Sequence record: PZ347775.1
Reading direction: 5' to 3' (one strand)
Origin: a phage
Length of the DNA: 64,000 bases
Below are positions 1-13,616 of this stretch, in pieces. Numbering within the stretch: the stretch's first letter is position 1; every line of letters starts with the position of its first letter. Under the pieces are notes generated by a model that was not told where the DNA came from, did no database searches, and was given only the letters and a program-made list of their open reading frames with translations. The position numbers were made by a program, and so were the translations under genes.

Positions 1-250
1 ATTCTAAGGTATTCCACTTTTTAGCATATCGTTTTAATAAAGTATCATTTTTGTATCTGCTTGATTTATCTCTTTCTCCGTCTTTATATGCATATATTAA
101 TTTCTGCGCAAATTCAGCTTGGCATGCTTTATTTTTCCCACAATAATCCGCGGCAGTACGGTTTACATACTCTCTAATTTCAGTGTATGATGTATTTGCT
201 AACGCAGAAAATGAAATTAATCCTACACATAAAACCAAAATTTTAGTCAT
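1..250 (-). CDS. hypothetical secreted protein, N-terminal 83 codons only (gene runs past window start)
   Basis: ATG at 250-248 on minus strand, open to position 1; signal-peptide-like N-terminus MTKILVLCVGLISFSALA; absent from ORF track because no stop in window. Confidence 0.3.
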   Translation of the reverse strand, partial: MTKILVLCVGLISFSALANTSYTEIREYVNRTAADYCGKNKACQAEFAQKLIYAYKDGERDKSSRYKNDTLLKRYAKKWNTLE

Positions 251-788
251 TTACTATTTCCAACAGTTTATTATTTTTAAGGTAGTTAGCCTTTTCTAGG
301 ACTTCAGAAGCATATTTAGAACCTGCTTTAACATTCCATCCCGAATTATAAGAGGATATTGCTTTTCTTATATCGCCCTTATGTATATTTAACCAATAAG
401 AAAGTTCAATGTACGCCCAGGAAGCTGAATTGGACCGTTTATTCAACATTCTTTTTATTTCGGCATCGGTCATATTATAACCAAGTTCCTTAACTCTTGC
501 ACGCATGGTTGGCAAATAATTTTGGAACATTCCGTAGGCATGATGTTTTGGTTTAGATTTTAAATTAACTCCGGCAGAGCTTTCTTGCCATAAAATGGCA
601 GCCATTATATGACCTAATCCGCTCTTGTGGATATTTTTGTGTGTTTTATATTTTCCATCCTTAGAAAATTGTTCCCCGAATTGATACGCGTAACGCATGT
701 TATCGAGTTGGACATTACTGAAAGTATGCTCGGAGCTATGTGCCATCATAGAAATGGCCAATAGACCAGCGAGTAGTGCTTTTCTCAT
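243..788 (-). CDS. secreted lytic transglycosylase-like protein (SLT domain); positional equivalent of T4 vs.1
   Basis: 181 aa; N-terminal signal peptide MRKALLAGLLAISMMA; SLT-type motif QESS..G....AYGMFQ. Confidence 0.7.
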   Translation of the reverse strand: MRKALLAGLLAISMMAHSSEHTFSNVQLDNMRYAYQFGEQFSKDGKYKTHKNIHKSGLGHIMAAILWQESSAGVNLKSKPKHHAYGMFQNYLPTMRARVKELGYNMTDAEIKRMLNKRSNSASWAYIELSYWLNIHKGDIRKAISSYNSGWNVKAGSKYASEVLEKANYLKNNKLLEIVND

Positions 789-795
789 GCTTACC

Positions 796-1257
796 TCATT
801 GAGTTTTAATTACTGCTTTAGAAGCCTTTCCTGGTAAACGACGACTGTTGATAATTGCCATCCTGCATTGAAGCGACGGGTCTTTGAACTTCGCATTAGG
901 TTTACAAACTGTAAATCCAAGCCAAAGATTTCCATCTGTGATTTCTAAACGCCCAGGACGATATTCAACACCATCAATAAAATCTTCGTCAATATCAGGG
1001 CGTGGAGGCATACTCAGGAATTCATTAACTTCTAAAACATGGTCTTTTATTTTATGGAATAATTCAAAAACATATGTCTCATCAATCTCCCGTTGAATTG
1101 CACGATCAAGAAGATGTTGAGAATATTTTAGATGAAACGATGAGACCCCTGCTGCTTTTGATGCCTCACGAATCTCATTGTTAATTTGACGAAACTCCGA
1201 CTCAAAGTGACGACGGAGCTTATTTCGACGGATAAAAACTTCTGTGTTGATAGTCAT
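796..1257 (-). CDS. regB: RegB site-specific endoribonuclease
   Basis: 153 aa, same length and map position as T4 RegB; GAGGAG Shine-Dalgarno upstream. Confidence 0.8.
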   Translation of the reverse strand: MTINTEVFIRRNKLRRHFESEFRQINNEIREASKAAGVSSFHLKYSQHLLDRAIQREIDETYVFELFHKIKDHVLEVNEFLSMPPRPDIDEDFIDGVEYRPGRLEITDGNLWLGFTVCKPNAKFKDPSLQCRMAIINSRRLPGKASKAVIKTQ

Positions 1258-1284
1258 GTTATTCTCCTCTTAACTGATAGAAAA

Positions 1285-1314
1285 ATTATACCACAGTCAA
1301 GAGGAAAAGTAAAC
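1285..1314 (-). promoter_or_regulatory. T4-type early promoter upstream of regB
   Basis: minus strand reads GTTTAC, 18-nt spacer, TATAAT, about 25 nt upstream of the regB SD. Confidence 0.55.
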
Positions 1315-1316
1315 AG

Positions 1317-1595
1317 TTATTCTTTAAATCTAATCAATTTATTCATAGACTTTGAAACTTCTGCACGAACCTCATGTAGGTTTTTAAGCTGTTCAAGACG
1401 TTGCTCATAGTAAGCAATTTCATCTTCTTCGAGACAGTCCTGTGAATCTTCTTTAAGATAACGTGCATAATCCTGGAAAGCTTTACGGACTACTTCCTGG
1501 AAGTCATCAAGACTTTGAATTTTCTTAGGAGCAACAGATACACGACGAGGGGCAGTATAATACTCATAACCAAACCCTGCGCTTAATTGAGCCAT
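1317..1595 (-). CDS. hypothetical protein (vs.3 position)
   Basis: ORF; start chosen at ATG 1595-1593 forming a TAATG overlap with upstream stop; ORF-track start at 1637 lies inside upstream gene. Confidence 0.55.
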
Positions 1596-1861
1596 TAATA
1601 TTTTTCCTCTGGTTGAAACACAGCACGACAAGCCCACATACTAGCTTCTTTGAGTTTCGTTTTAGCAATAGTTAACTGATCGATGCTTTCAGCATAATTC
1701 TTCGCGAATTCATAGTCTTCACAATTATTTAGCACTTCCCAGAATTCGTCGTATAAAGCATCAAAGATAAGTCCTAAACGAACTTCAGCGTCTTTGATTG
1801 CATTCACTTTACCGATTTTCTCTTCAGTATGGGGCTTATAACCTTTAATGTCTTCAATCAT
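1595..1861 (-). CDS. small helical protein at vs.4 position; candidate Acb2-like cyclic-oligonucleotide sponge
   Basis: 88 aa ORF, third gene downstream of GrcA-like vs.6 equivalent; assignment by gene order only. Confidence 0.5.
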
Positions 1862-2075
1862 ATTCTACTTCCTCACCAGTACATAAATCATATTCAACTA
1901 AACGAATAGGTTCATGAATGCCATATCCTTGAACAGAAATTTCTGTCGTAGGATAAATTCCACTAATATCACCCATATTCCACGCTTCATTAAATTGCTG
2001 TTCGCCTGAATTACTAAACCACTCGGCGAAAGCATTTAGCACATCTTTAGAACCTTCAATAATTATCTTTGCCAT
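1854..2075 (-). CDS. hypothetical protein (vs.5 position)
   Basis: 73 aa ORF tightly packed between neighbours. Confidence 0.5.
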   Translation of the reverse strand: MAKIIIEGSKDVLNAFAEWFSNSGEQQFNEAWNMGDISGIYPTTEISVQGYGIHEPIRLVEYDLCTGEEVEYD

Positions 2076-2449
2076 TACAGACTCTCGGTAAAGGTACGAG
2101 CAATAACGTCGCGCTGCTGTTCCGGAGTCAGAGAGTTAAAGCGAACTGCATATCCGGATACACGGATGGTCAGCTGCGGATATTTTTCCGGATGCTTAAC
2201 TGCATCTTCCAGAGTTTCGCGACGCAGAACGTTAACGTTCAGGTGTTGACCACCTTCAATTTTAACTGTAGGTTGTGGTTCAATTTCAATTTCACGGGCA
2301 TGCAAACCGTAGAAAATTTCCGGGTCTACAAAAGAGTCCTCTTTAAAAGTTTTAGAGACAATAATTCTTGCTTGAATACCGTCTTCAAAATAAATAGTAC
2401 CTTTATGCGTGCCTTCAAGAATTTGATATGCTTTCATATAACCTCTCAA
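2075..2449 (-). CDS. autonomous glycyl-radical cofactor (GrcA/YfiD-like; T4 vs.6 equivalent)
   Basis: 124 aa; C-terminal glycyl-radical motif [25 protein letters not shown] as in GrcA and pyruvate formate-lyase C-terminus. Confidence 0.85.
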
Positions 2450-2775
2450 TTAGAAAATAAATTTATCCAAGATTGCTCTTTAATTAAAAATGGCTCAGAA
2501 TCATATGCCATTAAACTTTGGGTGATTAGTCCTTTAAAAGGCCCATCAATAAATTCCATGGTAAAATATGGAATTTTATTCATTAATCTTGCATTAGGAG
2601 CAGTGCACAAAACTCTGCATCCTTTGAATACGCCTTTTTGTAATTTGTATTGCTTAGGGTAAAATTCGCTCAAGACGTTGTTATTTGCCAAAATTTCAAA
2701 ATGATTCACCAATTTATTTTTAATAGTTTTTGGCGAAAAATAAAGATATTCGAAAAGTTGCGTGTCTGTCATCAT
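2446..2775 (-). CDS. hypothetical protein (vs.7 position)
   Basis: start set at ATG 2775-2773 giving ATGA overlap with upstream stop 2774-2772. Confidence 0.55.
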
Positions 2776-3359
2776 TGCATTCCGATTACGAAAAACTGTG
2801 GACGAGTAATACCACCAATGCAACATTTACTATTGCAGCAGTAATGTACAGTGTCAATATGGACACTATAAATTTTATCCATATCGGGAGCTTTAACAGG
2901 CTCATCGATTATATACAAAATCCGCGAAAGCGATAAACCTCTGAACTTGCTTCCTTTATTACCGATAAAACTACGGACAGAATCGGTAAATAAGCGGAAT
3001 CGAATATCATCGCCAGAATAACGAGAAAATTCTTTTTTAATGTGGCCTGCAGAAATTTTAGCGTAAGCTGAAGTATTAGAAAGAACAATAACTGTTCCAC
3101 CATCATACAGCCAATTAGCAGCAAAGTTAGTCACAGCAGTTGATTTACCGGATTGTCTGCCACCATCTAATCGAAGTGTGCAATACTGCTTGAGTAAGTC
3201 TTCAAATGGTGGGATATAATCGTTTTTACAAATTTCTTCTACTCTAGCATCAGAATGGTGTGTAAAAGCATTCATCAGGGATAGATAAGGACCAGTTAAA
3301 AATGTTCTCATTTTATTCTCTCTAAATTTGGGCCATTCCATGGCGCATGAATTGTCCAT
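2772..3359 (-). CDS. P-loop NTPase of unknown function, sitting where T4 has vs.8/denV
   Basis: Walker A GGRQSGKST, Walker B-like LYIIDEP, Cys-rich tail HYCCNSKCC; start ambiguous (ATG at 3359, 3341 or 3311); no resemblance to endonuclease V. Confidence 0.6.
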   Translation of the reverse strand: MDNSCAMEWPKFRENKMRTFLTGPYLSLMNAFTHHSDARVEEICKNDYIPPFEDLLKQYCTLRLDGGRQSGKSTAVTNFAANWLYDGGTVIVLSNTSAYAKISAGHIKKEFSRYSGDDIRFRLFTDSVRSFIGNKGSKFRGLSLSRILYIIDEPVKAPDMDKIYSVHIDTVHYCCNSKCCIGGITRPQFFVIGMQ

Positions 3360-3464
3360 TTCTGTATTTACCCATTACCGCACTTGGGCTCGACCTTATT
3401 ACAGGTTGGCGGGAATCCCTCATAGAACCATGAGGTCCAGCTTGTTCCCATATTTCTTATTTGC

Positions 3465-3938
3465 TTATTTGAATGATTTGACGTACTGAATAGAGCCTTT
3501 GCTATTCACGAAAGCGATTTTACCATTTTTATTATACATGGTAGCAGTACGCTGATAGCCATAAGTTTGCTTACCAGATTGATAACCAACTAATGCAAAA
3601 TTATCTTCACCCATTTTATTCTGTTTAGCACGAATGCGTTCATGCCCATGCGCCATAAGAACCTTAGCATCACCAGTTGCAATGGATCTACGAGTTTTTT
3701 CATCTTCAACTGTATTAACAAAGTCGTCAAATGAATCAAATTTAGCATGGGATTTATTATACAGTTTTCCATCTACTGCATAATTGTATCCTTGTACATC
3801 CATCTCAACTTCTGTACCATCATCTAATACAGCAGTGATTTTTTGACCTTTTTTAAATTTCAAAAGATCAGTAAAAGATTCAGCAATAATTTGAGAATTA
3901 ATAGCTGCTTCAGTAATAAATTCTTGATATGTTTTCAT
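3465..3938 (-). CDS. internal protein with capsid-targeting sequence (IPII/IPIII locus)
   Basis: N-terminus MKTYQEFITEA matches the T4 internal-protein targeting leader with an (L/I)xE cleavage site. Confidence 0.75.
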   Translation of the reverse strand: MKTYQEFITEAAINSQIIAESFTDLLKFKKGQKITAVLDDGTEVEMDVQGYNYAVDGKLYNKSHAKFDSFDDFVNTVEDEKTRRSIATGDAKVLMAHGHERIRAKQNKMGEDNFALVGYQSGKQTYGYQRTATMYNKNGKIAFVNSKGSIQYVKSFK

Positions 3939-3954
3939 GTGTATCCTTTAATTT

Positions 3955-4272
3955 TTATTCTTTAGGGAAGTTTTTAGAATATGCATCATAAAGCTTATTT
4001 CCAATACGGCGGAAAACTCTAGCCGCAAAACGATTTTCTGGGTTTTTAATCATGATTTGCATCATATAAGTACCCGCGTCAGAAAGAGCTTCTTCATAGT
4101 ACCCGTTAATTTCTTTAAGAGTCCTACGTTTACCACCAGGACCATCAACAGTGATTTTCCATTTACCTGTAGAAGTGCGACTTGGCGGCTCAACTTGTTC
4201 AATCCAGATATAACCGCCTTCTACACGTTGTCCTTGGGCAGATTCTGCAATAAATTCTTTAAACGTTTTCAT
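3955..4272 (-). CDS. internal protein with capsid-targeting sequence (IPII/IPIII locus)
   Basis: N-terminus MKTFKEFIAESA; 105 aa; adjacent to lysozyme gene as in T4. Confidence 0.75.
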   Translation of the reverse strand: MKTFKEFIAESAQGQRVEGGYIWIEQVEPPSRTSTGKWKITVDGPGGKRRTLKEINGYYEEALSDAGTYMMQIMIKNPENRFAARVFRRIGNKLYDAYSKNFPKE

Positions 4273-4310
4273 ATGGTTCCTTTAAATATTTTAATTAGTA
4301 ACTATGAATA

Positions 4311-4339
4311 TACTATCACAGTTCTAGGAGAAAGTAAAC
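4311..4339 (-). promoter_or_regulatory. putative early promoter upstream of internal-protein gene
   Basis: minus strand GTTTAC followed about 17 nt later by TGTGATAGTAT; same module recurs at 8.7 kb and 12.1-12.9 kb. Confidence 0.4.
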
Positions 4340-4343
4340 AACT

Positions 4344-4874
<531 letters not shown>

Positions 4875-5330
4875 TTAAAAGAGGCTGTTCATTATTCGGT
4901 AAAGTGAAGGACCCATCACATATTGCCACTGAGTACGAGGAATAAGAGCAAAAGCATCCATCTCTGGAATCATAACACCATCTTTATTTTCAAAATAAGA
5001 CTCGCAATGGCAATTTCTAAACATCTCATGCTCTACTGGAATCGTATAATAAAATAACTGTAAGTCTTTATTACTAGAATATTTAAATACACCTAGGTCT
5101 TCTAGAAGGTCTGGATTATAATTATTAAAACCAGTCTCTTCTAAGCATTCTCTTCGTGCTGCATCTAGTGCGTTTAAATCAGAATTTTCTACGCGGCCCT
5201 TTGGAATATCCCAGCGATGTGCCATCATTCCAGGCTTACGAGAACCAGTAACTCGTCCCATAAATAAATCTTTATCTTCTGTCATAAAGATAATACCAGC
5301 TGATAATGTTTTCATTTTAATTTCCTGCAT
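4875..5330 (-). CDS. nudE: Nudix hydrolase NudE
   Basis: Nudix box GRVENSDLNALDAARRECLEETGF; alternative start at 5315 gives ATGA overlap with upstream stop. Confidence 0.85.
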   Translation of the reverse strand: MQEIKMKTLSAGIIFMTEDKDLFMGRVTGSRKPGMMAHRWDIPKGRVENSDLNALDAARRECLEETGFNNYNPDLLEDLGVFKYSSNKDLQLFYYTIPVEHEMFRNCHCESYFENKDGVMIPEMDAFALIPRTQWQYVMGPSLYRIMNSLF

Positions 5331-10130: not shown

Positions 10131-10206
10131 TGGTCGAGGCAGTAGGGATCGAACCTACGACCTAGGACTTAGAAGGTCCTTGCTCTTCCTTCTGAGCTAT
10201 GCCCCG
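10131..10206 (-). tRNA. tRNA-Arg (anticodon UCU)
   Basis: hand-folded cloverleaf; anticodon loop CUUCUAA, T-loop UUCGAUC, 7-bp acceptor stem, CCA encoded. Confidence 0.85.
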
Positions 10207-10210
10207 TAAT

Positions 10211-10286
10211 TGGGGTGACCGATGGGAGTCGAACCCATGACTACGAGAATCACAATCTCGAGTTCTACCAACTGAACTACGGCCAC
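10211..10286 (-). tRNA. tRNA-His (anticodon GUG)
   Basis: anticodon loop UUGUGAU, discriminator C73 typical of tRNA-His, T-loop UUCGACU, CCA encoded. Confidence 0.75.
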
Positions 10287-10400
10287 ATTAATACCTACTC
10301 CAACAATCAAGATGTCTTCACACGAAATTAAGAGAAGAGTGATCAGTTCAACCCCGATAATCGCGTCAAGTAGATATTAATGTGACAGTTGTCACAAATT

Positions 10401-10475
10401 TGGCGGACGTGATAGGATTCGAACCTATAACCAATCGCTTAACAGGCGATCGCTCTGCCATTGAGCTACACATCC
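10401..10475 (-). tRNA. tRNA-Asn (anticodon GUU)
   Basis: anticodon loop CUGUUAA, D-stem GCUC/GAGC, T-loop UUCGAAU, discriminator G, CCA encoded. Confidence 0.8.
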
Positions 10476-10479
10476 AAAT

Positions 10480-10566
10480 TGGTGGGGAGTGATGGAGTCG
10501 AACCACCCGAGTCGCAATGACAATGGATTTACAGTCCACACCGCTACCTCTACGGGATAACTCCCC
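10480..10566 (-). tRNA. tRNA-Tyr (anticodon GUA)
   Basis: 87 nt with long variable arm; anticodon loop CUGUAAA; discriminator A; perfect 7-bp acceptor stem. Confidence 0.75.
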
Positions 10567-10579
10567 TTAATTCTTAATT

Positions 10580-10654
10580 TGGTGGCCCTGGGTGGAATTG
10601 AACCACCATCTGGCGATTATGAGTCGCTTGCTTGAACCTTCCAGCTACAGGGCC
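10580..10654 (-). tRNA. tRNA with anticodon CAU (Ile2-type as in T4, or Met)
   Basis: anticodon loop CUCAUAA; T-loop UUCAAUU; perfect acceptor stem; D-stem only 3 bp. Confidence 0.7.
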
Positions 10655-10655
10655 T

Positions 10656-10731
10656 TGGTGCTGATTGACGGAATCGAACCGCCGACCTTCTCATTACAAG
10701 TGAGTTGCTCTACCTACTGAGCTAAATCAGC
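10656..10731 (-). tRNA. tRNA-Thr (anticodon UGU)
   Basis: anticodon loop CUUGUAA; D-stem GCUC/GAGC; T-loop UUCGAUU; CCA encoded. Confidence 0.85.
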
Positions 10732-10736
10732 AAAAC

Positions 10737-10826
10737 TGGCGGAGGCGATAGGATTTGAACCTATGAGTCGCCGGAGCGACTGCCGGTTTTCAAGACCGGT
10801 GCATTAAACCACTCTGCCACGCCTCC
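10737..10826 (-). tRNA. tRNA-Ser (anticodon UGA)
   Basis: 90 nt, long variable arm GUCGC/GCGAC; anticodon loop CUUGAAA; CCA encoded. Confidence 0.85.
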
Positions 10827-10828
10827 AG

Positions 10829-10902
10829 TCTCCATACAAGGATTTGAACCTTGGACCTCCTGATCCCAAATCAGGCGCTCTACCAAACTGAGCTACACGG
10901 AG
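10829..10902 (-). tRNA. tRNA-Pro (anticodon UGG)
   Basis: anticodon loop UUUGGGA; T-loop UUCAAAU; CCA not encoded, abuts tRNA-Ser (T4-style Pro-Ser dimer). Confidence 0.8.
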
Positions 10903-10912
10903 TAAATTAAAT

Positions 10913-10986
<74 letters not shown>

Positions 10987-10991
10987 AAATT

Positions 10992-11078
10992 TGGTGCGAG
11001 AAGTGGGACTCGAACCCACAAGGAAATCATTCCGCAGCATTTTAAGTGCTGTGCCTTTACCAATTTGACCATTCTCGC
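10992..11078 (-). tRNA. tRNA-Leu (anticodon UAA)
   Basis: 87 nt with long variable arm; anticodon loop CUUAAAA; T-loop UUCGAGU. Confidence 0.85.
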
Positions 11079-11079
11079 G

Positions 11080-11152
11080 CTGGGAATAAAGGACTCGAAC
11101 CTTTGCATCCTGGAATCAAAATCCAGTGCCTTACCAACTTGGCTAATTCCCA
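11080..11152 (-). tRNA. tRNA-Gln (anticodon UUG)
   Basis: anticodon loop UUUUGAU; perfect acceptor stem UGGGAAU/AUUCCCA; discriminator G; CCA not encoded. Confidence 0.8.
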
Positions 11153-12198: not shown

Positions 12199-12507
12199 CT
12201 ATTTTATTCCGCGTGATGCAATTGTGTTCTGCCGTTTAACACCAGTTTGTTTAAAGTCATGATTGTCGATTTGATCGGTACGAGCAACACCGAATGATGA
12301 TTTAATCTTAGCTTTAGATCCTTTAGTTATAGAAATAAACATCTCGGAAGCCCCTTTCTTAAAGTCCGAGGCGATTACTTCAACGCCGTTCTTAGCAAGT
12401 GACCTCAGAATTGCCTCCGCGTACTCATCATCAAGACTCGCCTGAGTATTAATAACGAATGTCTTTGGTGCAGTCGCTTCATTGATAAATTCTTGATATG
12501 TTTTCAT
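12199..12507 (-). CDS. internal protein with capsid-targeting sequence (ipI locus)
   Basis: start set at MKTYQEFINEA; ORF-track start 12519 adds four residues. Confidence 0.7.
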   Translation of the reverse strand: MKTYQEFINEATAPKTFVINTQASLDDEYAEAILRSLAKNGVEVIASDFKKGASEMFISITKGSKAKIKSSFGVARTDQIDNHDFKQTGVKRQNTIASRGIK

Positions 12508-12539
12508 TTTGATTTCCATTTAGTTTTGTTTTGATAGGG

Positions 12540-12574: not shown

Positions 12575-12847
12575 TTATTTTAAATAAATTGCATATTTTT
12601 TATAACCAGCCGTCTCGTGACGCAGACCTTTTTCATTAGCAAAGCGTTCAATATTATTAATTTGATTCTGATCAAGTTCTGAAATATCAAATACAAAAAA
12701 GTTTCGTTTATTTCCTAACGTTACATGATTCGTCAAATCAATGTTATAAAGATGATTTATATTATCAATCATAGTCTTAACAGATTTGCTAATTTTTACT
12801 TCTTCATTAAGAGCAGATTCAACGATAAACTCTTTGAAAGTTTTCAT
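12575..12847 (-). CDS. internal protein with capsid-targeting sequence (ipI locus)
   Basis: N-terminus MKTFKEFIVESA; 90 aa. Confidence 0.7.
   Translation of the reverse strand: MKTFKEFIVESALNEEVKISKSVKTMIDNINHLYNIDLTNHVTLGNKRNFFVFDISELDQNQINNIERFANEKGLRHETAGYKKYAIYLK

Positions 12848-12919: not shown

Positions 12920-13616
<697 letters not shown>

Follow-up and report, generated by a model that had tools for sequence, protein, structure and literature searches.

Does the small minus-strand gene at 1595-1861 of this phage DNA encode the T4 Vs.4 (Acb2) protein, and if so, which cyclic nucleotide signals would the product be able to hold? The window, by which we mean the whole stretch of 64,000 nucleotides from record PZ347775.1 that was analysed, had received a sequence-only reading that placed an 88-residue ORF at these positions, and both the coordinates and the length given there were exact. 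On the evidence of its sequence, 1595-1861 is the orthologue of T4 vs.4 (acb2) and carries every family feature that can be tested at this level. We put at roughly 95% the probability that it is a Tequatrovirus vs.4 whose product is expected to be a hexameric dinucleotide sponge that blunts CBASS.

The vs.4 frame is intact and tightly fitted between its neighbours. It consists of 88 codons and a TAA on the minus strand, with the ATG beginning at 1861 and the stop at 1597-1595, and no plus-strand ORF of at least 30 aa overlaps it in the ORF list. A Shine-Dalgarno-like GAGG at 1874-1871 (minus strand), 9 nt before the ATG and within the 3' end of vs.5, would serve as its ribosome-binding signal. 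The start of vs.4 and the stop of vs.5 share 8 nt on the minus strand (ATGATTGA; 1854-1861), and the annotations of phages ime09 and REP4 contain the same overlap, which suggests that the two genes are translationally coupled. At its other end, vs.4 meets vs.3 in a TAATG junction (1593-1597, minus strand) where the vs.4 stop and the vs.3 ATG overlap by one base; vs.3 read from this ATG is 279 nt long in the annotations of ime09, REP4 and T4. The nucleotide identity of vs.4 to T4 is 92.5%, compared with about 96.8% for regB and vs.3, and the codons that differ comprise 15 synonymous and 4 non-synonymous changes. Because synonymous differences prevail to this extent, vs.4 is a coding sequence under purifying selection.

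Transcription signals were sought with consensus promoter and terminator patterns across 700-3600. The scan returned 8 promoter-like sites against 9.0 expected, which is no better than chance, and it is therefore uninformative on vs.4 transcription. The only convincing site in this interval is a strong sigma-70-like promoter upstream of regB, TTTACT-17-TATAAT with an extended -10 TG, at 1313-1285 on the minus strand, within the 59 nt that separate vs.3 from regB. This site may serve regB as an early promoter; lying downstream of vs.4, it does not drive that gene. That vs.4 might be a functionless remnant in the phage, decayed or unexpressed, is a reading to which we assign a practically negligible probability. 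We found nothing that speaks for it: the promoter scan is at chance level, yet the gene sits within a tightly packed, co-directional string. The frame is full-length, is preceded by the Shine-Dalgarno motif and overlaps its neighbours at both start and stop, and the synonymous excess of 15:4 relative to T4 also runs counter to decay. The identical protein occurs in nine records, and a homologue is found in more than 1,200 phage records. A knockout of T4 vs.4 shows a phenotype (PMC10097602), and the T4 gene is transcribed.

The best match of the protein among all PDB chains is 7UQ2, the T4 'Vs.4' structure (E 2.8e-54), in which residues 2-89 align with residues 1-88 of the window protein over the full length, with 84 of 88 residues identical (95.5%). 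PaMx33 Acb2 (p26; 8H2J, 8IXZ) appears among the weaker PDB matches. The Pfam family PF24729 (Acb2_Tad1_hairpin) is matched at 70.9 bits over profile positions 1-58 of 58, well above its curated cut-off of 27 bits, and the best PHROG is 717 (E 5.8e-32), the group named for Vs.4 homologues by Jenson et al. (PMC10097602). NCBIfam holds no model for Vs.4, vs.3, vs.5 or Acb1. By tblastn, 1,233 phage records contain a homologue, and the identical protein is encoded in nine: ime09 (two), REP4, vB_EcoM-RPN226, SF2-1, CT01, vB_EcoM_IME537 (two) and TB004. In ime09 the gene is annotated as vs.4, and its product (AEK12376.1) is 100% identical to the window protein. Thus, a vs.4/Acb2 name that the sequence-only reading had proposed from gene position only is upheld by the 95.5% identity to 7UQ2, by PF24729 and by the ime09 vs.4 entry. 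The counter-case named in that reading, a protein unlike Acb2 with a neighbouring ORF as the true homologue, does not hold, given the PDB, Pfam and PHROG matches of the ORF itself.

The fold agrees with this identity. A single-sequence AlphaFold2 model is a hairpin of two helices (residues 13-46 and 50-81; mean pLDDT 78), and a Foldseek search with it placed the 7UQ2 chains at the top (E 7e-10), followed by PaMx33 Acb2 (8H2X, 8H2J). The model is of moderate confidence, with a TM score of 0.61 to 7UQ2 and termini below pLDDT 60, and adds little to the sequence match as evidence of identity.

The surroundings of vs.4 are those of a T4-like phage. The first 5 kb of the window are tightly packed minus-strand genes, among them vs.1 (243-788; SLT-like domain, PHROG 600), regB (796-1257; Pfam REGB_T4, 230 bits), vs.3 (1317-1595; 92 codons, PHROG 2037), vs.5 (1854-2075; 73 codons, PHROG 1986) and the GrcA-like vs.6 (2075-2449; Pfam Gly_radical, 66.8 bits), all on the minus strand. 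The order regB, vs.3, vs.4, vs.5 and GrcA-like vs.6, from which vs.4 had originally been named, is confirmed by these Pfam and PHROG matches and is the same in ime09 and T4. The longer series vs.1-regB-vs.3-vs.4-vs.5-vs.6-vs.7-vs.8 follows the T4 and ime09 annotations, and the REP4 locus also agrees. The 1.3 kb around vs.4 are 95-99% identical to 451 phage records, Tequatrovirus of Escherichia and Shigella, and the first 25 kb of the window share 96-98% identity with phages that include ECO07P3 and REP4; the window thus belongs to a T4-like coliphage.

The two genes that flank vs.4 were considered in their own right. Neither is the true vs.4, a candidacy that their placement in PHROG 2037 (vs.3) and PHROG 1986 (vs.5) rules out. 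The vs.3 product reaches no Pfam family at threshold and matches PDB 9WIW (E 4.9e-38), a homologue with a 9-residue insertion that its depositors named 'Endoribonuclease', a name that may just echo database annotation. For vs.5, no solved relative was found among PDB entries, the best match having an E value of 0.06. An Rfam scan of 1-5000 (E<=1) returned sub-threshold eukaryotic families only and hence no RNA element.

Residues with published functions in T4 Vs.4 are conserved in the window protein. Jenson et al. (Nature 2023, PMC10097602) showed T4 Vs.4 to be a hexameric cGAMP sponge, and the protein falls into one family with Acb2. Its Kd for 3'3'-cGAMP is about 30 nM, and the hexamer takes up three molecules of cGAMP, each lodged between a pair of protomers; Y8 and F82 stack the bases, while Y8, H11, K23 and R79 make polar contacts (PMC10097602). 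Mutations at Y8, F82, L29, A66, A73 and A77 abolish CapV inhibition, as do the screen alleles T12I, S74N and A77I. The F33A change makes the hexamer unstable, and the hexamer-interface roles in T4 Vs.4 come from mutagenesis and ultracentrifugation (PMC10097602). All of the cGAMP-contact residues (Y8, H11, K23, S74, R79 and F82) are kept in the window protein, and the hexamer-interface residues L29, F33, A66, A73 and A77, together with the helix-cap residue T12, are as in T4. In an alignment of eight sequences (the window protein and its homologues from PaMx33, one Phapecoctavirus phage and a further five Straboviridae genera), G7, Y8, N20, K23, L29, G30, M75, R79 and P84 are invariant, and the Y11 and K26 that are essential in PaMx33 Acb2 correspond to Y8 and K23.

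Cyclic trinucleotides are unlikely ligands of the window protein. On its three-fold axis, PaMx33 Acb2 carries another pocket, lined by R67 and T74, in which cA3 and cAAG are bound (Cao et al., PMC10312549). T4 Acb2 binds dinucleotides and not cA3; it has D61 in place of the PaMx33 R67, its pocket is narrower and occluded by Y37, A57, L60, D61 and T64, and the D61R change failed to give cA3 binding (PMC10312549). The window protein has Y37, A57, I60, D61 and T64 at the occluding positions, and as in T4 the counterparts of R67 and T74 are D61 and T68, which sets it apart from the dual-pocket Acb2 subtype. Because D61 replaces the required arginine, Vs.4 of the window probably has no cyclic-trinucleotide pocket and probably belongs to the T4 subtype that takes dinucleotides only. 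Hence, the term cyclic oligonucleotides in the earlier reading is better limited to cyclic dinucleotides, as T4-type Acb2 does not bind cyclic trinucleotides.

Four substitutions, A43V, D45N, C50Y and L60I, are the only differences from T4 Vs.4, and all lie in the variable central segment of the hairpin, where the eight-sequence alignment shows the lowest conservation in the family. The same allele is common to ime09, REP4 and five other phages. Position 60 is Ile in four of the five other aligned homologues from the phage collection and Leu only in T4 and ZCKP1, and an L60F allele recovered in the T4 screen for CBASS sensitivity still inhibited CapV in vitro (PMC10097602).

These changes might in principle have shifted the ligand range of the sponge, with a gain of cyclic-trinucleotide or 3'cADPR (Thoeris) binding or a weaker affinity for 2'3'-c-di-AMP, the Panoptes decoy. 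Acb2 homologues do vary in their binding spectrum (PMC10312549), some of them inhibit type I Thoeris, and L60, one of the residues that occlude the T4 trinucleotide pocket (PMC10312549), is Ile in the window. Nevertheless, an exchange of Leu for Ile leaves the side-chain volume no smaller, so the occluded pocket is not opened; D61 is kept, and even D61R gave T4 Acb2 no cA3 binding (PMC10312549). The dinucleotide-pocket residues are all identical to T4, A43V, D45N and C50Y sit in the poorly conserved hairpin tip, and the overall identity to T4 Acb2 is 95.5%. We therefore regard a member of the family with a shifted ligand range as extremely unlikely. That the four-substitution allele differs functionally from T4 Acb2 in some way, for example in its affinity for 2'3'-c-di-AMP relative to CBASS signals, is also very unlikely; if true, an altered decoy affinity would be a natural step in a sponge-versus-decoy arms race.

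With a T4-type dinucleotide sponge as the preferred reading, the mechanism can be outlined from T4. By homology to T4 Vs.4, we infer that the window allele assembles into a hexamer, binds its ligand and inhibits CBASS. The 88-residue two-helix hairpins would form a hexamer with three pockets, each between two protomers and each holding one cyclic dinucleotide. The CD-NTase/cGAS product would be sequestered and not degraded, and CBASS effectors such as the phospholipase CapV would stay below their activation threshold, allowing the phage to complete its cycle. The same binding activity would also expose the phage to the Panoptes decoy-nucleotide defence. For the decoy 2'3'-c-di-AMP, T4 Acb2 has a Kd of about 62 nM; this binding triggers Panoptes, and Y8A and F82C in T4 Acb2 abolish the triggering. 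Since the ligand pocket is identical to that of T4 Acb2, the phage is expected to be detectable by Panoptes, as T4 is.

A second anti-CBASS gene lies 11 kb from vs.4. A homologue of Acb1 (T4 gp57B) of 151 aa is encoded at 12920-13375 on the minus strand (Pfam PF23474, 202.7 bits; PDB 7T26, E 4e-62), with 57A and gene 1 as its neighbours, which is the T4 arrangement. Because of this gp57B homologue, the phage carries both anti-CBASS genes, acb1 and acb2, and T4 likewise carries both (PMC10312549). In the T4 transcriptome, vs.4/acb2 and 57B/acb1 fall mainly into the middle/late classes.

Further features of the window bear on its relation to other T4-like phages. The minus-strand interval 2772-4838 contains vs.8, a DUF7412 internal-protein-like gene of 157 aa (3465-3938), a 105-aa gene (3955-4272) and e (4344-4838). 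The gene denV is absent between vs.8 and e, and a tblastn search with ime09 DenV returned nothing in the 64 kb window; REP4 shares this arrangement without denV, whereas T4, ime09 and vB_EcoM_P8 have denV there. The 153 nt (3312-3464) that separate vs.8 from the internal-protein gene show no folding beyond that of shuffled sequences (z = 0.02). Four minus-strand ORFs (3465-3938, 3955-4272, 12199-12519 and 12575-12847) have nearly the same N-terminus, MKT(Y/F)(Q/K)EFI..E(A/S)A, which we take to resemble the leader that directs T4 internal proteins to the capsid; they form a varied group of candidate injected proteins, of which the 157-aa one alone belongs to a Pfam family (DUF7412). Eleven tRNA genes (Arg, His, Asn, Tyr, Met/Ile(CAT), Thr, Ser, Pro, Gly, Leu and Gln) are located at 10131-11152 on the minus strand. 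The REP4 annotation has the same 11-tRNA set, and T4 has 8 tRNA genes.

The vs.4 finding is real but already known, as the exact protein is public in at least nine phage records and the mechanism of the 95.5%-identical T4 protein is already solved structurally and genetically. A textbook-level anti-CBASS sponge such as this matters little beyond correct annotation. Most of the records with the identical protein still label the product 'hypothetical protein' or 'conserved hypothetical protein', while a few recent records annotate the vs.4 position as 'anti-CBASS protein 2 / acb2' (e.g., acb2 in vB_EcoM_P8). The practical value lies in phage characterisation. With acb1 and acb2 both present, the phage is predicted to tolerate many dinucleotide-signalling CBASS systems and to be sensitive to Panoptes-type decoys.

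Among known systems, T4 Vs.4 (PDB 7UQ2) is the closest characterised counterpart. It has the same length of 88 aa, occupies the same slot between vs.3 and vs.5, belongs to the same Pfam family and PHROG, and is identical to the window protein at the published ligand-contact and hexamer-interface residues; the four substitutions are where the two differ. The phages ime09, REP4, vB_EcoM-RPN226, SF2-1, CT01, vB_EcoM_IME537 and TB004 encode the same protein with the same flanking vs.3 and vs.5. Further out, ime09 departs from the window, as its denV adjoins the internal-protein gene and the window is without denV.

Gene neighbourhoods vary more among distant relatives. In a Pseudotevenvirus, a Slopekvirus and a Jiaodavirus phage (L007, L008 and L009; about 1133-1776), a 363-nt gene abuts vs.4 without vs.5 between them; the gene has the length of vs.6 and is labelled 'pyruvate formate-lyase' in L009. 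In a Gaprivervirus phage (L006), the label 'pyrimidine dimer DNA glycosylase' stands on a gene of only 72 codons immediately upstream of vs.4 and is probably an annotation error. Klebsiella phage ZCKP1, a Phapecoctavirus (Stephanstirmvirinae) outside Straboviridae, has a Vs.4/Acb2 homologue with 76% identity amid unrelated small genes (L005, 1495-1764), which suggests that the sponge gene moved between phage families.

PaMx33 Acb2 (p26; 8H2J, 8H2X, 8IXZ), known from the work of Huiting et al. and Cao et al. (both 2023; summary in PMC10312549), resembles the window protein in its helical-hairpin fold and in the principle of a hexameric sponge. The two proteins are about 23-31% identical, and PaMx33 Acb2 has the trinucleotide pocket, whereas the window protein is configured as in T4. 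Acb1 (T4 gp57B) is an anti-CBASS nuclease of the 2H-phosphodiesterase type. It acts on the same CBASS signals as Vs.4 and has an unrelated fold; Acb1 degrades the signal, whereas Vs.4 would sequester it.
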